A DNA stretch of 31,100 bases from Escherichia coli (lineage in GTDB: Bacteria > Pseudomonadota > Gammaproteobacteria > Enterobacterales > Enterobacteriaceae). This document shows positions 1 to 30,909 of this stretch, one piece after another; the stretch's first letter is position 1, and each line of letters starts with the position of its first letter. The notes below the pieces were generated by a model. It ran no database searches and was not told the origin of the DNA. It was given only the letters and a program-made list of their open reading frames with translations. Both the position numbers and the translations under genes were made by a program. Location: assembly GCF_003334765.1 (NCBI RefSeq), contig NZ_QOWT01000040.1; one strand, written 5' to 3'.

Positions 1-106
1 AAATCGGCTCAAACATGAAGAAATGAAATGACTGAGTCAGCCGAGAAGTATTTCCCCGCTTATTCGCACCTTCCTTAGTCGCGCGCTGAATGGAATTTAC
101 GCCTCT

Positions 107-487
107 TTGGAAACATCTGATTGGGGAATAATGAAGTTATTTGAGGATTTAGCATATAGAAATTATAAGTCAAGCGCATGGTCCGCTATGCTAAGAAATA
201 AATTAAGATTGAGAATGGACGATAAGCTTGATGAAAAGATAATTTCAATAATTAATGAGAAAGAGCTTGGTAAAAAGTTTTATAGAATTGACAGAGATCG
301 TTTGTTATCGTTAATGTTAGATTATAATATTGATATACCAATTAATCTTAATAATATAATTTACCTTTGTAATTATTTTTTCATAAAATCTACGGAGCTT
401 CAGGATATAGCCCCTGCTTTAATAATGAAAAAGCTTACAGATGCTGATGAAAAATTCAATAAAAATACTATTTTAGCATCTAAATAA
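107..487 (+). CDS. Hypothetical protein, low-GC orphan (TTG start at 107; first ATG at 131)
   Basis: 126-aa ORF from the six-frame track; AT-rich; no recognisable motif; convergent with the recombinase/ParB operon; followed by the 505-534 hairpin. Confidence 0.4.
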   Translation: METSDWGIMKLFEDLAYRNYKSSAWSAMLRNKLRLRMDDKLDEKIISIINEKELGKKFYRIDRDRLLSLMLDYNIDIPINLNNIIYLCNYFFIKSTELQDIAPALIMKKLTDADEKFNKNTILASK

Positions 488-504
488 TAACTATCTCCGG
501 CTAT

Positions 505-534
505 TAAGTAGGCCTTGTATTTTAGGCCTACTTA
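505..534. repeat. Perfect 10-bp stem hairpin (taagtaggcc / ggcctactta, 10-nt loop)
   Basis: Inverted repeat read directly from the sequence, 18 bp after the ORF 107-487 stop. No U-tract follows on either strand, so it is not a canonical intrinsic terminator. Confidence 0.5.
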
Positions 535-866
535 AAAAGTTTCATTATGTGAAGTGATGATGATAGCAAATCTGATATCTTTATGGTTGGATGCGAGAAA
601 ATATTTTTATCCCGACACAACAACTGGTAATGATAGAAAATTTAAACCCAAAAATGCTACAGTAGCCTCAGCTCACAAACGGAGTATAAAGTGGCGGTTA
701 CTCTTTAGTGGGAATACTGTAGATAGTTGATAAACTGGGCTGGATTTTCTTTTCTAACCGAAGGGAAGAAAAGCAAGGGGAACCCAAAGAAACAAGCGCA
801 GCGGCTTCGTAGGGTTAGCCCTTGCTTCTTTTATAATTGGCATTATTCATTCAAGAACAATAGGAT

Positions 867-886
867 CTTCGCTTGTACAAGCGAAG
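867..886. repeat. Perfect 20-bp palindrome CTTCGCTTGTACAAGCGAAG
   Basis: The sequence equals its own reverse complement. Lies in the AT-rich non-coding stretch of the island. Confidence 0.7.
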
Positions 887-1005
887 CTATAATAAAAAAT
901 CAATTAATTATTTTAAAAGTATTAAGCAAGAGCCTATTGACATTCGTAAAATAAAAGTTATTTTTAATGTATGCCATAAATAAAAAGTTTTATGTCATAT
1001 GTATC

Positions 1006-1020
1006 CTGCACTATGTGCAG
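1006..1020. repeat. Inverted repeat CTGCAC-TAT-GTGCAG
   Basis: 6-bp arms with a 3-bp spacer, read directly from the sequence. Confidence 0.5.
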
Positions 1021-1036
1021 TTAATGTGCCACTTGT

Positions 1037-1048
1037 CCCATATATGGG
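1037..1048. repeat. Perfect 12-bp palindrome CCCATATATGGG
   Basis: Self-complementary sequence read directly; 17 bp from the 1006-1020 repeat. Confidence 0.55.
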
Positions 1049-1539
1049 AATATTGGAAAGGTTACTTTGTTTTGAAGTAGCCTTTCGTCCTTCAATATTC
1101 ACGATTACTTATTGCTATTACCAAGTCCAGTCGAATCGAAGAACATCTTTTATCTGAAACGACTCCTAATACCAGGTTGAAGCCACAATATCTCTCGCAT
1201 AAGTAGACCAAAGAAAAATTATGATATTAACTATGTGATTTTTTTTAGTGTTAAGTTGAATAATTATATACTGGAGAGTTTTCTGTACACTACCAATTGC
1301 TGGTTCATCTGTTCTGCCGCTGATGTTTCTGACTAATCTCCCGGTGACACAGAACTGTCCCTCTCTACCAGCCTTTATTCGACTCAATGTCCGGCTGCTG
1401 ATACGCAGTTATCCCTTCGTATCAATGACTGACTCTTAAACGCAATGCTTTGGTTGCTGGCGTATCTGACAGCTTCTTCGGCGTGAAGGTCGTTGTGTAA
1501 GTATACTTCTTGGTTTATTTAGGCTATATAAAACCATGA

Positions 1540-2436
1540 CTATGACTGGCTGTTTTCAGTAAGAGTCTTATCATCCAAAGAATTTATTCTAGAAATTCTT
1601 TTTAACTCATTAAGATAATCAACCTCGTTTTCTAAGAACCAATGAAGAACTTTAGAGTTGCCAAGTAATTTATTAATATATGACTGGATTATAACGAATT
1701 TCAACATATCTGAACCATACTCGGTTTGAAGTTTTTTCGTTTCTTCCGAAGTTGTTGCCATTTCTTGTTCCAGACGAAGTATGGTTTTTTTTATGTCCTT
1801 TTTATAGGGAGTGTTTTTCCCTTTATTTACTATCATCGATGACGGTGTTGCATCCAAGATGCTCATTGCAAATTTTTTACTATAATTATCAAAATTAATC
1901 ATTGTACCGACTGCTTCAATTTGACGAATTGGCTTCATTTTCCTCAAAACGTCAAATGTAGCCTTAGGTATAGGTTTATCAGAAAGTTTCGCAATTACAC
2001 TTGGATCTATGCCGTTCATCACATTAGCTTTATCTTTTATGGCATCAACAGATATGCCCAAAGCAGCACTAAGTTTTTCAATTGATACTTTTGCCAGAGA
2101 CTTAATTATCATTCTATGTTCTTCAACTACATTTATATGATTCACTTGTTTGTTAGGAGTGAAAGCATCATCTATGCTCGAAAGTATACATGGAGCTTTT
2201 TCTATATCTAAGTCTTTTAAAGCCTCAACCCTTAAATGGCCATCAAGTATCTTAGTGACATCTTTATCTTTGTCATAGAATACTATTATTGGTTCAATAA
2301 TACCCAAGCTTTCGATAGAGGTAACTATTTGATGATATTTATGGCTTCGCTTTACGTTTTCTAATAATTCCTTAGATGGAATTAACTTATTAGTTTCCAG
2401 GTAAATAAAATTTTTGCCAAAACGTATCTGAATCAT
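1540..2436 (-). CDS. ParB/Srx-like protein B (298 aa), third gene of the operon
   Basis: ParB-like N-terminal layout (IIEPIIV...ILDGHLRVEAL...APCIL) followed by a helix-turn-helix-like segment (SIEKLSAALGISVDAI). ATG overlaps the stop of the upstream gene by 4 nt (ATGA). Confidence 0.6.
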   Translation of the reverse strand: MIQIRFGKNFIYLETNKLIPSKELLENVKRSHKYHQIVTSIESLGIIEPIIVFYDKDKDVTKILDGHLRVEALKDLDIEKAPCILSSIDDAFTPNKQVNHINVVEEHRMIIKSLAKVSIEKLSAALGISVDAIKDKANVMNGIDPSVIAKLSDKPIPKATFDVLRKMKPIRQIEAVGTMINFDNYSKKFAMSILDATPSSMIVNKGKNTPYKKDIKKTILRLEQEMATTSEETKKLQTEYGSDMLKFVIIQSYINKLLGNSKVLHWFLENEVDYLNELKRISRINSLDDKTLTENSQS

Positions 2437-3329
2437 TTTGATACCTCTTTGTTTACTGGGTTTAATATCTGAGATGGTAGTTCTGAAAGATTCTCTTGTT
2501 CAAGTATATTTTGAAAGCTTTTATTCATCATTATGATGTTAAAAATCTCATTTATTATTAGTAGATTGGTTTTTATAAATTTCGAGTTGTTATAAACAGA
2601 TTTATGTTCAGCGATACTATTTTCATAAAGCTCAATCAACTCCTCTGCAGTCATCCTTTTTGATGGTTTGTGATAATAAAATCCGGCTGCTTTTGCACCT
2701 TTATTCCCAACTGTTCTTTGATTTAGAATGTATTTTATCTTTATAATGTCCCGACTTTTTATTAATTTTTTATCATATGCTTCGGTAAGAATATCTTGTG
2801 CTTCCTCAGTTTCACATCTTGCAAATTGCACTGCGAGATACAGAGGCAAATTACCCCGTTCGACTGCTGAGAGAAGTTTATGCTCTCCCTTATCAAGAAG
2901 CATATTAATACTGCTCACCCAGTTCGATGAATATCCAGTAATCTCACTTATTTCGGAGTCTGAAAGTCCTCTGATTTTCATGTCTTTAATCACCTGTAAT
3001 AACTCATTAGAACGTGGTCTTCTCCTTGCAATGTTTTCAACTAAACTCATAACGTAAGCATCTTCTTCTGATACATCTCTTATAATTGCTGGAATAATAG
3101 TTTCACCTAATGCAACAAGAGCCTCTATTCTCCCTTGACCACAAATTAAAGCATATTTGAAATCGTCTTCATCAATAGCTCTTACGCTTATAGGCTTGCT
3201 TAATCCTCTTTTTTTTATGCTTTCCTTTATTTCTTCATGCACTACCTTATTTCTTGTTCGTGGGTTAAGAAATTTTATTTTTGCAATCTCAATTTGAATT
3301 ATTGGGAATTCATTTTTTTCAGGCAGCAT
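2433..3329 (-). CDS. ParB/Srx-like protein A (298 aa), second gene of the operon
   Basis: Close positional match to ParB/Spo0J N-terminal domain plus HTH: PISVRAI...ICGQGRIEAL...IPAIIRDVSEEDAYVMSLVENIARR...LSDSEISEITGYSSNWVSSINMLL. GAGGG Shine-Dalgarno 7 nt upstream; start overlaps the recombinase stop by 11 nt. Confidence 0.65.
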   Translation of the reverse strand: MLPEKNEFPIIQIEIAKIKFLNPRTRNKVVHEEIKESIKKRGLSKPISVRAIDEDDFKYALICGQGRIEALVALGETIIPAIIRDVSEEDAYVMSLVENIARRRPRSNELLQVIKDMKIRGLSDSEISEITGYSSNWVSSINMLLDKGEHKLLSAVERGNLPLYLAVQFARCETEEAQDILTEAYDKKLIKSRDIIKIKYILNQRTVGNKGAKAAGFYYHKPSKRMTAEELIELYENSIAEHKSVYNNSKFIKTNLLIINEIFNIIMMNKSFQNILEQENLSELPSQILNPVNKEVSK

Positions 3330-4875
3330 ATAGTTCCCTCACTTTCATGCGAGTAATAATTTGTAGAAATTTATCAAGATTATCAAATCTATAGAGATCT
3401 AACCGAATGTTGTTTGTTTCCATCATACACATTTTACTATATTCGTTTTCAATCTTTGGTATGATATAAAAATCAAGAGGTGAAATATTTTGTGAATTCA
3501 TTCGTATAACAATTGTTATGTCTGCTTTCTGTGAGTTATCAAACCGGACTTTCCATCTAAGTTTACCTGATTTCATATGTATGCATTTAGTAACAAGGAC
3601 GGAAATTAAAAACTCATCATTGATGTAAAGCATTGGGTAATATTTATACTCGTCTATATGACAGTTACTTTTTAATATTTCGCCCTTAAAATCCTCAATT
3701 ATCTCTGAGTAAAATGATCTTAGTGCTTCATTTATTTGGAGATAGCTGTAATCATGTTCTGGCTTATAACCAATCAAAGTATATGCTCTTAAAAGACCAC
3801 CAAATCGGGTTCTATAAACAGAAGATGAAGGGCCTGTATCATCTTCATCAATGATAAAGCCTGATAGTTTTCCATTAGATTCTAATTTTTCTTTTAGCTT
3901 TTCTAATAGATCTTCATTAGTCAAATGAATGGATCGGAGCTGAATTATTTCTTGAGCTTTATTATATTTTTTCTTTGAAATAATTGGTTTATATGCCTTG
4001 TCACATCTAATCCATTCATGTTTGGGGTTTTTTACAAGCTTACTTTTTAGTTTAGATGAGGTTTTGTTATATATGTTGTTTCCAATATATTTTTCATTTG
4101 TCAAAATTTGATGTATTTTTGCACGAGTCCATGATGTTCCATTTTCTGCAGGTATGCTCTGTTCATTTAATCTCTCAGCAATAATGAATTCTGGGACGTT
4201 ACTATCTATAAAGAGATCATAGATTCTATTTACAATTTTTATTTCATTTTTTGGTCCCGGAATTAATATTACCCTATCTGTTTGAATACTCTTTCTTTTG
4301 CGGAAATTCAATATTTCTTTAGCTATGCCATTTTCGTCTACTAAAAGACGTCTCAGCCCATAACCAGCCATACCGCCTTGATGATAACCAAGCTTTATTA
4401 AATTTACTTGCCCTATAAATACCTTTTCAGATAGATTCCTGCTGTGATATGCAGCACTTGATCTTTTTATATTCAGTATAACAGAGGACTCTAAAGGGAA
4501 ATCTTTAGTGGGTATAGGTTCGGAACAATATATAAGATCTACACCATTTCTTTCAAATAGAAAGGAATAATATGCAGCTTCATCACTATTTTGAAAACGA
4601 CCAAAACGGCTCACATCATAAAATAATACAGCCTGTATATCTATTTTCTTTTGTTCTACATCGCTAAGTAACTGCTGCAAAGAATGCCTGCCTACGATAC
4701 TGACTCCGCTCTTACCTGCATCATCGTAGGTATAAGCGATTTCCATATTGTTCTTTTCAGCATAATCTTTGATATATTCAGACTGATTATGTAAAGAATA
4801 TTGCTGATGGTCGGTAGACATCCTCAAGTACTGTGCGACCCTAACTCTATGATTTTTTTCATTTCCGCTAGCCAT
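3319..4875 (-). CDS. Large serine recombinase-like protein (about 518 aa; track ORF starts at TTG 4881, first ATG at 4875)
   Basis: Resolvase-type catalytic domain motifs in the right order: YLRMSTDHQ (presumed nucleophile Ser), DDAGKSG, RHSLQQLL, VSRFGR. Then a recombinase-domain signature: GGMAGYGL ... WTRAKIHQILTNEKYIGN. GAGG Shine-Dalgarno upstream of the ATG. Confidence 0.7.
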   Translation of the reverse strand: MASGNEKNHRVRVAQYLRMSTDHQQYSLHNQSEYIKDYAEKNNMEIAYTYDDAGKSGVSIVGRHSLQQLLSDVEQKKIDIQAVLFYDVSRFGRFQNSDEAAYYSFLFERNGVDLIYCSEPIPTKDFPLESSVILNIKRSSAAYHSRNLSEKVFIGQVNLIKLGYHQGGMAGYGLRRLLVDENGIAKEILNFRKRKSIQTDRVILIPGPKNEIKIVNRIYDLFIDSNVPEFIIAERLNEQSIPAENGTSWTRAKIHQILTNEKYIGNNIYNKTSSKLKSKLVKNPKHEWIRCDKAYKPIISKKKYNKAQEIIQLRSIHLTNEDLLEKLKEKLESNGKLSGFIIDEDDTGPSSSVYRTRFGGLLRAYTLIGYKPEHDYSYLQINEALRSFYSEIIEDFKGEILKSNCHIDEYKYYPMLYINDEFLISVLVTKCIHMKSGKLRWKVRFDNSQKADITIVIRMNSQNISPLDFYIIPKIENEYSKMCMMETNNIRLDLYRFDNLDKFLQIITRMKVRELYAA

Positions 4876-5157
4876 GCACAAAACCTCATGGATGATTCAA
4901 TACAATGTAGAGGATAAAATTGATCAAATTTTAACCGAATTCAACTGTTTTATCATTGATTAGAGCGAATTTGGTAGTTCTTCGAGGTGTATGATAATCG
5001 AGAAGAGATGTGAATTATTTAGCTGATATGACCGACAGCTTTCGTTATGTGGCCTCAAGGTACCCATTTGTAAATGGCTATGCTTAGTCCACATAGGTTA
5101 ATGGTGTGATCATTAATTCTTCAAATAAATCAAGATAGTTAACCCATCATGGAAGAG

Positions 5158-6387
5158 TTATGCGGCAATAACTTTGTATTTTTGAGACGAAACATAGTCA
5201 CTCCACCATTGCATGAGAACCACACGTTCTGTGAGATACTCTGCACGATTGTAGGCTGCAATTATTTCATCTTTTTTCGAGTGGGCAAGGGCGGCTTCTA
5301 AGACATCAGTTCTAAACTTGCCACACTCCTCAGCCGCCGTTCTAGCGATTGATCGCATACCATGAGCTACAAGCTCACCTCCGAAGCCCATACGGATTAT
5401 AGCCGCATTAGCTGTTTGTTCATGCATGTGATTGAGTGGAGCTTTGATACTGGGAAAAACCCACTCTCTATGCCCGCTGATGGCTTTCATTGAATCCAAG
5501 ACTCGCAAAGATTCTTTGCTCAGTGGAACTTTGTGAGGCTTCTTCATTTTCATAAACTCCGCCGGGATGTTCCACATGCTGGTTTCTATATCAATATCTG
5601 ACCATCTTGTGCGAACAGCTTCACCAGGGCGAACCCATGTGAGAAGTTGCCACTCAATCAGTAGCCTTGTTTCTAAACGGATAGAAGCATTGTTTAGAGC
5701 AACCAGGAAGCGGGGGAGTTCGGAAGGGGGTAATGCTGGCATATTCTGTTTTTTTGGCTTGCTGAACCGTTGCCCCAGGTTGTCAGCCGGATTGAATTCT
5801 ATGAGTTCTTCTGTTGCTGCATAGCGGAAAATTTCATTCAGGCGGGATATGACGCGGCGAAGTGTTTCAAGGACACCTCGTTTTTCTATGGGGTCTAAAT
5901 GCTGTTTAAGCATTTTAGGGCGAATCTCCTTAATGGGGGTATCACCCAACGTTGGAAAGATATTTCTCTCTAGGCTTCGCCAGATGTCGTTAGCATGATC
6001 CTGGGAGATGCCTGACGTTTTGACTTTCTCATCAAGCCACTTCTTGGCTACTGCTTGAAATGTATGTTCCGTTGCATCCTTAAGGGCATTGGCTTTGTGG
6101 GTGTTATGAATTTGTGGGTCTATACCATTTGCAAGCAACGACAAGTACTCATCACGTAAAGCTCGTGCCTTCGCAAGTGTAAGGTGAGGATAGGTTCCTA
6201 AGCTCACCTTAGTTCGCTTTTTGGTCACAGGCACTGCATATCTGAAATACCAATTTTTCTTTCCTCCCTTCGCTAAGGGGGCGATTCGCAGGAGCAAACC
6301 ATCGCCGTCAAAAAGGTTAACCTCTTTCTCGGCAGGTTTGGTGCTTTTGATTTCAGTGTCAGTGAGCTTCTTAGCGATTTTTGCCAT
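5158..6387 (-). CDS. P4-family tyrosine integrase (409 aa from MAKIAKKLTDTEIK; the track ORF extends upstream to 6531)
   Basis: N-terminus typical of P4/CP4-57-type integrases; C-terminal tyrosine recombinase motifs (HGMRSIARTAAE ... AHSKKDEIIAAYNRAEY); sits directly beside the ssrA 3' end. Confidence 0.85.
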   Translation of the reverse strand: MAKIAKKLTDTEIKSTKPAEKEVNLFDGDGLLLRIAPLAKGGKKNWYFRYAVPVTKKRTKVSLGTYPHLTLAKARALRDEYLSLLANGIDPQIHNTHKANALKDATEHTFQAVAKKWLDEKVKTSGISQDHANDIWRSLERNIFPTLGDTPIKEIRPKMLKQHLDPIEKRGVLETLRRVISRLNEIFRYAATEELIEFNPADNLGQRFSKPKKQNMPALPPSELPRFLVALNNASIRLETRLLIEWQLLTWVRPGEAVRTRWSDIDIETSMWNIPAEFMKMKKPHKVPLSKESLRVLDSMKAISGHREWVFPSIKAPLNHMHEQTANAAIIRMGFGGELVAHGMRSIARTAAEECGKFRTDVLEAALAHSKKDEIIAAYNRAEYLTERVVLMQWWSDYVSSQKYKVIAA

Positions 6388-6553
6388 GTTTGGGACCCTC
6401 ATGTTTTGGACCCTTTGTGTTGGGTCCCAAAAAGGGTGCCATAACGAGTAGATTCTAGCAATTCTCGGTAGACTACTATAGACGTAAAAAAGCCCGCAAG
6501 GCTGGTTCCATGCGGGCTTGATAGACTTCACTGAACTTCAATATATCAAAAAT

Positions 6554-6916
6554 TGGTGGAGCTGGCGGGAGTTGAACCCGCGTCCGAAATTCCTACATCC
6601 TCGGTACTACATGCTTAGTCAGTCTTTACATTCGCTTGCCAGCTGCGGACGGACACGCCACTAACAAACTAGCCTGATTAAGTTTTAACGCTTCAACCCC
6701 AGGCAGGGCTTCCACGCGATCTCTTTTGGGTTTGACCTCTCTTGATCCCCGTCCTAAGAGCGGAGGCTAGGGAGAGAGGGCTCTAAGCAGGTTATTAAGC
6801 TGCTAAAGCGTAGTTTTCGTCGTTTGCGACTATTTTTTGCGGCTTTTTACGAGGCCAACCGCCCCTCGGCATGCACCTTGGGTTTCGCAAATCCCGTCGA
6901 ATCCAGAATCAGCCCC
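6554..6916 (-). ncRNA. ssrA: tmRNA (SsrA), 363 nt
   Basis: Reverse complement reads GGGGCTGATTCTGGATTCGACGGGATTTGCGAAACCC ... GGGTTCAACTCCCGCCAGCTCCACCA, i.e. the tRNA-like 5' and 3' ends of tmRNA including the CCA end. Confidence 0.92.
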
Positions 6917-24764: not shown

Positions 24765-24786
24765 AGTGTTGCCTTTTTGTTATCAA

Positions 24787-24817
24787 TAAAAAAGGCCCCC
24801 CGATTTGGGAGGCCTTA
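24787..24817 (-). terminator. pheA attenuator terminator
   Basis: Minus strand reads AAGGCCTCCCAAATCGGGGGGCCTTTTTTATTG between pheL and pheA. Confidence 0.8.
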
Positions 24818-24862
24818 TTGTTCGTCTTCGCATTCTGTTTCACACGACGAAACGCCTCCCAT

Positions 24863-24910
24863 TCAGGGGAAGGTAAAAAAGAATGCGAAGAAAAACGGTA
24901 TGTGTTTCAT
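24863..24910 (-). CDS. pheL: pheA leader peptide PheL (15 aa, [15 protein letters not shown])
   Basis: Reverse complement reads ATGAAACACATACCGTTTTTCTTCGCATTCTTTTTTACCTTCCCCTGA; Phe-rich leader. Confidence 0.85.
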
Positions 24911-24965
24911 GTTTGTTTCCTTAAGTGACTTTAGTACAGTACCCGTACTGTTTTCACGCTGTCAA

Positions 24966-28206: not shown

Positions 28207-28268
28207 CCTAAAGAATCAAGACGATCCGGTACGCGTGATTTTCTTTTCACATTAATCTGGTCAATAAC

Positions 28269-28297
28269 CTTGAATAATTGAGGGATGACCTCATTTA
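28269..28297 (+). promoter_or_regulatory. Sigma-32 heat-shock promoter of clpB
   Basis: CTTGAA, spacer of about 14 bp, CCTCATTTA, about 40 bp upstream of the clpB ATG. Confidence 0.65.
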
Positions 28298-28335
28298 ATC
28301 TCCAGTAGCAACTTTGATCCGTTATGGGAGGAGTT

Positions 28336-30909
28336 ATGCGTCTGGATCGTCTTACTAATAAATTCCAGCTTGCTCTTGCCGATGCCCAATCACTTGCACT
28401 CGGGCACGACAACCAATTTATCGAACCACTTCATTTAATGAGCGCCCTGCTGAATCAGGAAGGGGGTTCGGTTAGTCCTTTATTAACATCCGCTGGCATA
28501 AATGCTGGCCAGTTGCGCACAGATATCAATCAGGCATTAAATCGTTTACCGCAGGTTGAAGGTACTGGTGGTGATGTCCAGCCATCACAGGATCTGGTGC
28601 GCGTTCTTAATCTTTGCGACAAGCTGGCGCAAAAACGTGGTGATAACTTTATCTCGTCAGAACTGTTCGTTCTGGCGGCACTTGAGTCTCGCGGCACGCT
28701 GGCCGACATCCTGAAAGCAGCAGGGGCGACCACCGCCAACATTACTCAAGCGATTGAACAAATGCGTGGAGGTGAAAGCGTGAACGATCAAGGTGCTGAA
28801 GACCAACGTCAGGCTTTGAAAAAATATACCATCGACCTTACCGAACGAGCCGAACAGGGCAAACTCGATCCGGTGATTGGTCGTGATGAAGAAATTCGCC
28901 GTACCATTCAGGTGCTGCAACGTCGTACTAAAAATAACCCGGTACTGATTGGTGAACCCGGCGTCGGTAAAACTGCCATCGTTGAAGGTCTGGCGCAGCG
29001 TATTATCAACGGCGAAGTGCCGGAAGGGTTGAAAGGCCGCCGGGTACTGGCGCTGGATATGGGCGCGCTGGTGGCTGGGGCGAAATATCGCGGTGAGTTT
29101 GAAGAACGTTTAAAAGGCGTGCTTAACGATCTTGCCAAACAGGAAGGCAACGTCATCCTATTTATCGACGAATTACATACCATGGTCGGCGCGGGTAAAG
29201 CCGATGGCGCAATGGACGCCGGAAACATGCTGAAACCGGCGCTGGCGCGTGGTGAATTGCACTGCGTAGGTGCCACGACGCTTGACGAATATCGCCAGTA
29301 CATTGAAAAAGATGCTGCGCTGGAACGTCGTTTCCAGAAAGTGTTTGTTGCCGAGCCTTCTGTTGAAGATACCATTGCGATTCTGCGTGGCCTGAAAGAA
29401 CGTTACGAATTGCACCACCATGTGCAAATTACTGACCCGGCAATTGTTGCAGCGGCGACGTTGTCTCATCGCTACATTGCTGACCGTCAGCTGCCGGATA
29501 AAGCCATCGACCTGATCGATGAAGCAGCATCCAGCATTCGTATGCAGATTGACTCAAAACCAGAAGAACTCGACCGACTCGATCGTCGTATCATCCAGCT
29601 CAAACTGGAACAACAGGCGTTAATGAAAGAGTCTGATGAAGCCAGTAAAAAACGTCTGGATATGCTCAACGAAGAACTGAGCGACAAAGAACGTCAGTAC
29701 TCCGAGTTAGAAGAAGAGTGGAAAGCAGAGAAGGCATCGCTTTCTGGTACGCAGACCATTAAAGCGGAACTGGAACAGGCGAAAATCGCTATTGAACAGG
29801 CTCGCCGTGTGGGGGACCTGGCGCGGATGTCTGAACTGCAATACGGCAAAATCCCGGAACTGGAAAAGCAACTGGAAGCCGCAACGCAGCTCGAAGGCAA
29901 AACTATGCGTCTGTTGCGTAATAAAGTGACCGACGCCGAAATTGCTGAAGTGCTGGCGCGTTGGACGGGGATTCCGGTTTCTCGCATGATGGAAAGCGAG
30001 CGCGAAAAACTGCTGCGTATGGAGCAAGAACTGCACCATCGCGTAATTGGTCAGAACGAAGCGGTTGATGCGGTATCTAACGCTATTCGTCGTAGCCGTG
30101 CGGGGCTGGCGGATCCAAATCGCCCGATTGGTTCATTCCTGTTCCTCGGCCCAACTGGTGTGGGGAAAACAGAGCTTTGTAAGGCGCTGGCGAACTTTAT
30201 GTTTGATAGCGACGAGGCGATGGTCCGTATCGATATGTCCGAGTTTATGGAGAAACACTCGGTGTCTCGTTTGGTTGGTGCGCCTCCGGGATATGTCGGT
30301 TATGAAGAAGGTGGCTACCTGACCGAAGCGGTGCGTCGTCGTCCGTATTCCGTCATCCTGCTGGATGAAGTGGAAAAAGCGCATCCGGATGTCTTCAACA
30401 TTCTGTTGCAGGTACTGGATGATGGGCGTCTGACTGACGGGCAAGGGAGAACGGTCGACTTCCGTAATACGGTCGTCATTATGACCTCTAACCTCGGTTC
30501 CGATCTGATTCAGGAACGCTTCGGTGAACTGGATTATGCGCACATGAAAGAGCTGGTGCTCGGTGTGGTAAGCCATAACTTCCGTCCGGAATTCATTAAC
30601 CGTATCGATGAAGTGGTGGTCTTCCATCCGCTGGGTGAACAGCACATTGCCTCGATTGCGCAGATTCAGTTGAAACGTCTGTACAAACGTCTGGAAGAAC
30701 GTGGTTATGAAATCCACATTTCTGACGAGGCGCTGAAACTGCTGAGCGAGAACGGTTACGATCCGGTCTATGGTGCACGTCCTCTGAAACGTGCAATTCA
30801 GCAGCAGATCGAAAACCCGCTGGCACAGCAAATACTGTCTGGTGAATTGGTTCCGGGTAAAGTGATTCGCCTGGAAGTTAATGAAGACCGGATTGTCGCC
30901 GTCCAGTAA
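28336..30909 (+). CDS. clpB: Chaperone ClpB (857 aa from [10 protein letters not shown])
   Basis: Two AAA+ modules ([16 protein letters not shown]); the track ORF extends 4 codons upstream to 28324. Confidence 0.95.

Follow-up and report, generated by a model that had tools for sequence, protein, structure and literature searches.

A probable MOBQ-type transfer origin and a candidate hairpin unit in a non-coding joint of an ssrA-linked island of Escherichia coli

Introduction

The relaxase substrates of RSF1010 and RP4 consist of an inverted repeat followed by 8 nt and a nick before CCC (PMC4814116, from which the RSF1010 nick sequence used in this analysis was taken), and in SGI1 a small RNA adjacent to the origin of transfer (oriT), sgm-sRNA, is required for mobilization (PMC9299015). 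Here, we compare with these systems the intergenic region at positions 488-1539 of a 31,100-nucleotide segment of an E. coli chromosome (contig NZ_QOWT01000040.1; hereafter, the window), which belongs to an AT-rich island situated to the left of ssrA, the tmRNA gene. Three parts of this region are the main subjects of the analysis: an oriT-type double hairpin that we call E1 (748-826), a perfect 20-bp palindrome (867-886), and a hairpin unit (969-1095) that follows a promoter-like site.

A preliminary description of the region, made from the sequence alone, had drawn attention to its palindromes and to a neighboring operon for two ParB-family proteins and a large serine recombinase. The reading that we favor, at a probability of roughly 0.55, is that 488-1539 is the non-coding, oriT-containing backbone joint of a MOBQ-type mobilizable island at ssrA, with a hairpin unit and the debris of insertion sequences (ISs). 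The oriT joint itself is of a known kind, and the hairpin unit is potentially a new component.

Results

E1 is a unit of about 80 nt on the + strand (748-826) that folds into two hairpins. In hairpin A, positions 749-755 pair with 767-773 around an invariant loop, AACCGAAGGG; in hairpin B, 774-778 pair with 820-824 and 781-785 with 812-816, and there is an additional inner GAAGC/GCTTC stem. The unit ends with the conserved tail GTTAGCCCTTGCT. E1 occurs alone in many other E. coli islands, with conservation breaking off abruptly at both sides. It was found that all of the 20 distinct E1 alleles fold into the two hairpins, with compensatory pairs in both: three pairs of hairpin A switch between C-G and U-A, the lower stem of hairpin B is present as AACCC/GGGTT, AACTC/GAGTT, or AACTT/AAGTT with G.T intermediates on the + strand, and the apical loop of hairpin B differs in length by up to 8 nt.

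The location of E1 relative to mobilization genes was found to be similar in five island types (loci L012, L013, L017, L018, and L019), in which E1 lies 105-180 bp upstream of a - strand operon for a mobC-like small protein that gives a weak NikA-like match and for a relaxase whose nuclease domain is of the MobA/VirD2 type (PF03432). Among plasmid relaxases, the nearest are that of Pseudomonas pHNGDW697-2 (46% identical) and the MobA-primase (MobA-RepB) fusion of the IncQ2 plasmid pGNB2 (38%). Each of these plasmids has an E1-like sequence upstream of mobC in the same orientation, which reads ...AACTCGGC-GGA-GCCGAGTTAGCCCTGGCT in pHNGDW697-2 and ...ACCGAAGGG...GAACCAAGCGAAGCGTAGGTTACACCTTGCT in pGNB2. 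Two shared sequences, the 13-mer GTTAGCCCTKGCT and the motif ACCGAAGGG, are found again upstream of mobC in these plasmids, also in the same orientation. The inverted repeat of E1 is followed by a conserved tail of 10 nt (AGCCCTTGCT), and an inverted repeat and a conserved nick-type region related to plasmid oriT regions are both present. On the basis of its sequence and position, E1 is probably the oriT of a MOBQ-like relaxase. As the transfer origin of the island, it would be recognized and nicked by the MobA/VirD2-type relaxase together with the small accessory protein.

E1 also marks a boundary of the cargo genes. Among 12 island alleles with unrelated cargo, sequence conservation ends 1-3 nt from GTTAGCCCTTGCT, and the unrelated defense cargo starts 1-3 nt after ...GTTAGCCCTTGCT, right after GCT. 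This joint is about 10 nt 3' of the inverted repeat, near the RSF1010/RP4-type cut (8 nt in their substrates). The cargo consists of changing anti-phage gene sets, which include type I restriction-modification, SIR2, and NACHT proteins, an ATP-dependent nuclease and UvrD-like helicase pair, and ThiF/MPN gene sets. It is conceivable, although in our judgment doubtful, that the nick position of E1 is the exact joint at which defense cargo is swapped between islands. Cargo exchange would then take place by relaxase-mediated initiation and termination, or by oriT-oriT recombination between tandem or co-resident islands, with a predicted cleavage of the + strand after ...CCCTTGCT.

The palindromic features in the preliminary description are all present, namely a perfect 20-bp palindrome, CTTCGCTTGTACAAGCGAAG, at 867-886, a perfect 12-bp palindrome, CCCATATATGGG, at 1037-1048, which extends to 14 bp at 1036-1049, and a 6-3-6 inverted repeat at 1006-1020. 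An additional hairpin with a perfect 12-bp stem and an 8-nt loop was found at 504-535. The frequency of such features by chance was evaluated in first-order Markov simulations of the 1052 bp. A palindrome half-length of at least 10 was obtained in 12 of 5000 simulations (P about 0.002), whereas a half-length of at least 7 was obtained in about 10% and a 6-3-6 repeat in 33%, and so the 20-mer is the only one of the palindromes that is improbable by chance. Inverted repeats with 6-bp arms and loops of 3-8 nt are enriched, with 8 observed vs 2.5 expected (P = 0.016).

A promoter scan of the region yielded a sigma-70 promoter-like site on the + strand at 937-964 (TTGACA, 16 nt, TATTTT). The TTGACAT sequence is invariant in 15 of 15 distinct alleles while the flanking sequences differ. 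On the same strand, positions 969-1095 (about 125 nt) form a candidate small structured RNA or single-strand DNA signal that has a possible 5' hairpin at 969-1000 and three main hairpins, H1 (1006-1020), H2 (1036-1049), and H3 (1056-1086). The stems of H1 and H2 are the 6-3-6 repeat and the 12-mer palindrome, respectively. In every locus that contains the unit, E1 is upstream of it and in the same orientation, with TTGACAT located 110-560 bp downstream of E1, a -10-like hexamer 16 nt farther on, and then the three hairpins.

The alleles differ in the three stems in ways that retain pairing. CTGCAC/GTGCAG in H1 is replaced by CTGTAC/GTACAG, UCCCA/UGGGA in H2 gives way to CCCCA/UGGGG via a U.G intermediate (with the loops UAUA, UAGA, UGUA, and CGUU), and in H3 a U.G pair changes to C-G and the loop shrinks from 11 to 6 nt. 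The loops vary by substitution and by insertion or deletion. Using RNAalifold and pair counts on the 15 distinct alleles, we found that 99.4% of the pair cells are standard pairs and that 0 of 500 shuffles reached the observed covariation in H1-H3, with one covarying pair per helix. The fold of the unit has a z score of -4.97 as + strand RNA vs -3.97 for the - strand, and every wobble is a G.T pair on the + strand. H3 is a strong hairpin with a 12-bp stem and lacks a clear U-tract. In O19:H7-type islands, H3 begins 6 nt after the stop codon of the integrase gene, with the unit facing the integrase.

There is moderate support for the suggestion, made in the preliminary description, of a small RNA in this region: a conserved promoter-like site on the + strand precedes three hairpins that show compensatory changes. 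The support from the covarying structure is modest, as there are few independent lineages. A transcribed small RNA is tentatively the most likely single reading of the hairpin unit, at a confidence somewhat short of even.

A sequence that overlaps the 5' arm of H1, the RP4/T-DNA-border-type nick motif TATCCTG/C at 1002-1009, was considered as a nick site and rejected, with a chance probability estimated at about 0.1. The motif is kept in most alleles, reads CTCCTGC in the YP3 type and AATCCTG in locus L025, and is not present in mobC-proximal intergenic regions.

Next in rank for the hairpin unit is a single-strand DNA signal in the leading region, which we think is unlikely. In this case, the H1-H3 cluster with E1 would work as single-stranded DNA, for priming or as another leading-region signal after the nick at E1, with the + strand entering first. 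That all of the wobble pairs are G.T on the + strand is consistent with this possibility, as is the location of the cluster just 3' of the E1 tail on the + strand, which would be the leading side with a nick located after the inverted repeat, as in RSF1010 and RP4. The single-stranded DNA fold of 740-1100 has a z score of -6.6. Three hairpins in a cluster are the usual form of G4-type priming signals. However, the invariant TTGACAT and the -10-like hexamer at 16 nt suggest ordinary duplex transcription, and the loop of hairpin A contains another nick-like motif, G/CCCTTCGG, on the - strand; with a nick in the - strand, the cluster would be at the trailing end.

The third possibility for the unit is that the hairpins are 3'-end structures (terminators or stabilizers) of convergent - strand transcripts of the integrase or ParB genes. 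The 6-nt distance between H3 and the integrase stop codon in O19:H7-type islands and the good fold of the - strand (the z score of -3.97 given above) are in favor of such a role. In contrast, no U-tract follows any of the hairpins on the - strand, the wobble positions become A.C mismatches on that strand, a conserved + strand promoter-like site lies just upstream, and YP3-type islands have no integrase gene within 6 kb of the block containing the unit. Therefore, we consider this role to be very unlikely.

The 20-bp palindrome consists of two inverted CTTCGCTTG half-sites and is a candidate protein-binding site. No clade-A allele differs in the arms, and in the YP3 allele, with a background identity of 81%, only the center is altered, from TA to CA. 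The same interval of divergent alleles contains several CTTC(G/T)CTTG half-sites and imperfect palindromes. A half-site is also present in the loop of the oriT-position hairpin of pGNB2 (CAAGCGAAG) and in the E1 loop (CAAGCGCAG), whereas the number of CTTCGCTTG half-sites elsewhere in the window, 11 matches vs 8.6 expected, gave no enrichment. The 20-mer is thus a candidate protein-binding motif linked to the transfer or regulatory module, and not to ParB, and its binding partner would most likely be a relaxosome accessory protein or a regulatory protein of the island.

O19:H7-type islands (L014, 5136-5306) have a tandem duplication of 104 bp located between E1 and the hairpin unit. A GCTTCGCTTG half-site and an imperfect palindrome, GCTTCTCTTGCAG..CAGGAGAAGC, are present in each copy, in an iteron-like arrangement.

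Partition ParB proteins bind palindromes of 14-20 bp, and the preliminary description had interpreted the palindromes as parS or operator sites of the ParB-like proteins of the adjacent operon, or as crossover sites of its serine recombinase. The 20-mer, improbable by chance, has a size within this range and is only about 650 bp from the two ParB-family genes. However, tests of co-inheritance and of junctions were both against this interpretation. In our survey set of 5426 complete E. coli genomes, both ParB genes were found in 630 genomes and block 840-1100, which contains all three palindromes, in 480. The block was found at an identity of at least 95% in about 434 genomes, all in the ParB context; at 80-90% in 35 genomes, of the YP3 type with the island next to ygbA; and at 60-80% in 11 genomes, of the O19:H7 type with the block abutting the integrase stop codon. 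The latter two groups are without the ParB and recombinase genes. Overall, about 190 genomes have the operon without the palindromes and about 46 have the palindromes without the operon, and so the co-inheritance with parB genes expected of parS was not observed.

Similarly, a serine-recombinase site would be expected to have a partner site and junctions located on the site. It was found that each palindrome, including the 20-mer and the 12-mer, is present once in the window and at one place per genome, and no rearrangement junction is located on any of them. Moreover, region 488-1539 is 3' (downstream) of the last gene of the operon and not upstream, the homology of the cassette in other genera ends at 1492, and the TA at the center of the 20-mer is itself a palindrome, which is not the case for the att cores of large serine integrases. 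Because the operon and the palindromes dissociate across genomes, and because the majority allele, with the sequence CCCATAGATGGG, does not keep the 12-mer intact, we reject the parS or crossover interpretation and regard it as the least probable of those considered here.

The 488-1539 region is a mosaic of separable modules. Some part of it was matched in 613 of the 5426 genomes, always once and always in the chromosome, and only 78 of these 613 have at least 80% of the region. Most of the other matching genomes have 747-1539 alone, at 96.6% identity, with unrelated DNA to the left. The part that is absent from these, 488-746 on the + strand, is a variant-specific 3' flank of the open reading frame (ORF) at 107-487, and the majority allele, which is that of E. 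coli 042, among others, diverges completely to the left of 746/747. To the right of the hairpin unit, positions 1096-1354 comprise a tail of the block with lower conservation (to about 1290) and then a stretch without an assignment. The tail can be aligned, with visibly lower conservation than 970-1095; it has insertions and deletions in the YP3 allele and is missing from O19:H7-type alleles. Breakpoints with IS1 or IS3 were found in different strains at 1160, 1196, and 1298/1306. For example, in strains 99-3165, Nico21(DE3) (BL21-type), and 23CRST010 the region is cut at 1160, 1196, or 1306 with IS1 or IS3 adjoining, and the ParB and recombinase genes are intact. The junctions seen among the genomes are at 746/747, 826, 1160, 1196, 1298-1306, and about 1492, none of them on a palindrome.

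These repeated truncations by IS1 and IS3 without loss of the neighboring genes, together with the presence of an IS3 fragment (see below), could mean that the region is decaying junk between modules and that its palindromes are without function; taken singly, both the 14-mer and the 6-3-6 repeat are compatible with chance. We consider this quite unlikely, because E1 and the hairpin unit are retained, with compensatory changes and loops that vary, in alleles with an identity of 77-81%, because an E1-like sequence is common to plasmids of other genera, and because of the enrichment of small inverted repeats noted above.

No convincing ORF was found in 488-1539, in agreement with the preliminary description. 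The longest start-to-stop ORFs encode 58-75 aa, the ten longest stop-to-stop fragments in six frames of the region had no NCBIfam or PHROGs match, and the RefSeq annotation of identical copies contains only a 112-bp pseudogene fragment of the IS3 family. Two small ORFs, 967-1080 and 999-1157, were rejected because of frameshifting indels between alleles and loss of the start codon. The designation of the region as AT-rich non-coding DNA requires correction in two respects: positions 1355-1498 are a pseudogene, and at a G+C content of 37% the region does not exceed the ParB/recombinase genes (32%) in AT content. Local G+C climbs to 48% at the IS3 fragment.

This fragment (1355-1498, + strand, about 145 bp) is an internal part of the transposase orfB of an ISKpn34-like member of the IS3 family. 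Its nucleotide sequence is 78% identical to plasmid-borne copies of ISKpn34, and a tblastn search aligned it with orfB residues 33-94, with a frameshift and a stop. Transposase homology is thus present and the element ends are not, indicating a remnant and not an element; no further IS3 remnants were found in the region beyond 1355-1500. In a BLAST comparison of the region with plasmids and phages, the IS3 fragment was the only match, and no plasmid match was obtained for 740-1110.

Just one part of the region, 1492-1539 (- strand), accompanies the ParB/recombinase cassette across lineages, and it forms the 3' flank of the last ParB-like gene. The recombinase-ParB-ParB cassettes of Enterobacter vonholyi and Citrobacter have 94-95% identity to that of the window, with homology ending at 1492-1494. 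A perfect 10-bp palindrome, AAGTATACTT, is located at 1499-1508 in this cross-genus conserved flank, beside the end of homology. The cassette is followed by a decayed remnant of an integrase 3' end in E. vonholyi, Citrobacter, and E. coli GF153, whereas in the lineage of the window the IS3 fragment occupies the place of this remnant, and no integrase remnants were found within 488-1560. It looks as if the cassette inserted into the 3' end of an integrase gene and brought its own replacement 3' end, and this may hint at the real target of the serine recombinase. The genome-collection scan with one of the ParB proteins, ParB1, gave two loci only, and diversity outside E. coli is poorly sampled.

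The coordinates of cassette and remnant are 1492-5470 in the window, 2930-3270 in L008, 280-620 in L009, and 4150-4610 and 8185-8712 in L060. E. coli GF153 also has an integrase fragment upstream of the recombinase gene, and the remnant is that of a P4-type integrase gene. A single metagenome contig (L034, 8279-11609) has a split integrase in two parts about 1.8 kb apart that overlap by 35 residues; the C-terminal part (residues 296-457) is 99% identical to the integrase of the window, whereas the N-terminal part (residues 1-330) is 91% identical and is a different allele.

With regard to the surroundings of the region, ssrA is at 6554-6916 on the - strand and is adjoined by the gene of a P4-type integrase (5158-6531). 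The genes of the large serine recombinase (520 aa, 3319-4881) and of the two ParB-family proteins (298 aa each, 2433-3329 and 1540-2436) are in the same row, all on the - strand, and the last gene of the operon has its stop at 1540. A search with PADLOC found no known defense-system model matched by the ParB-like proteins or the recombinase; the protein encoded at 1540-2436 has a weak N-terminal match (E = 4e-6) to the N-terminal part of the PADLOC type II methyltransferase model. The product of ORF 107-487 (126 aa) is hypothetical in RefSeq and has no NCBIfam or PADLOC match. A perfect hairpin with a 12-bp stem comes after the ORF, which in identical islands is downstream of NACHT and RelA/SpoT-like genes. 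A search of the whole window at Rfam gathering scores yielded only ordinary core-genome RNAs, namely tmRNA (6554-6916), the Phe leader (24786-24911), and RyfD (28217-28355), with no match in 488-1539, and a permissive Rfam search of 450-1600 (E up to 10) gave chance-level matches only.

The islands are a family located at ssrA and at a site next to ygbA, and they are present in more than a tenth of complete E. coli genomes. A full-text literature search with exact sequences of the region returned unrelated primers only, and a search for the island family or for the cassette of ParB and serine-recombinase genes returned nothing specific.

Discussion

Our results are consistent with a model in which the parts of 488-1539 have separate roles and histories. 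E1 would serve as the site at which transfer starts, and the 20-mer would be a binding site built from a half-site that is also found in oriT hairpin loops, serving a relaxosome accessory or regulatory protein. The promoter-like site at 937-964 is predicted to drive a structured RNA of about 125 nt (about 970-1095). Because in related islands the unit faces the integrase gene, with its end 6 nt away from the stop codon of that gene, this RNA could act on integrase expression or on transfer. The rest of the region would be the product of decay, made up of the low-conservation tail and the IS3 fragment that replaced a displaced integrase 3' remnant.

Several observations weigh against this model. 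In the island of the window, the mob operon is about 4.5 kb to the left of E1, outside the window and with cargo genes between them, there is no E1-like sequence next to the mobC gene of this island, and the E1 allele of the window has an A.C mismatch in the inner stem. As for the hairpin unit, its covariation amounts to about one event per helix and comes from no more than two or three deep lineages, and the patterns used to fetch the loci fixed most of the stem bases, which biases the sample to intact stems. Symmetric changes in a palindrome can also come from co-evolution with a dimeric protein. Furthermore, the 3' end of the candidate RNA is not defined by a clear U-tract after H3, and a covariance model of H1-H3 found no further, more divergent copies, including at loci that have E1 alone. 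There is no related Rfam family, which leaves the unit unclassified rather than refuted.

The location of the probable oriT would show which part of the island is required for mobilization by a helper plasmid, and it provides a short candidate cis element. If the idea that the nick is the cargo joint were true, the oriT nick would be a cassette-exchange mechanism for defense islands, with an oriT-linked candidate small RNA beside the joint. If the hairpin unit is a real small RNA, it would join that of SGI1 as a second RNA linked to the oriT of a mobilizable island. The analysis also corrects a tempting misreading, in that a palindrome beside ParB genes need not be a parS site.

The likeness of the region to known systems is partial in each case. 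The 1355-1498 segment resembles ISKpn34 in the nucleotide identity to an internal part of its transposase gene, but it is only a fragment with a frameshift and a stop, lacks element ends, and is not mobile. The 20-mer has in common with the parS sites of ParB partition systems that it is a perfect palindrome (16-20 bp in parS) near genes of the parB family. In contrast to parS, it is single-copy, downstream of these genes, freely dissociable from them, and conserved in islands that lack ParB.

The arrangement of the hairpin unit resembles that of sgm-sRNA in SGI1, which is also an integrative mobilizable element with a small RNA gene beside oriT. However, SGI1 has the tyrosine-recombinase-like MpsA instead of a MOBQ relaxase, and the likeness is positional, the unit described here being a prediction from sequence.

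E1 differs from the IncQ-type MOBQ oriT (RSF1010/R1162 and pGNB2) in that it is chromosomal, in an integrated island, and has two hairpins and a tail of 10 nt vs 8 nt, and the island relaxase is only 38% identical to the relaxase-primase fusion of pGNB2. In other respects, the two are alike: in both there is an inverted-repeat hairpin followed by a short conserved single-strand tail with CCCT, located upstream of mobC, and a relaxase with a MobA/VirD2 nuclease domain. In the case of pGNB2, the region upstream of mobC and E1 directly share ACCGAAGGG and GGTTA-N2-CCTTGCT.

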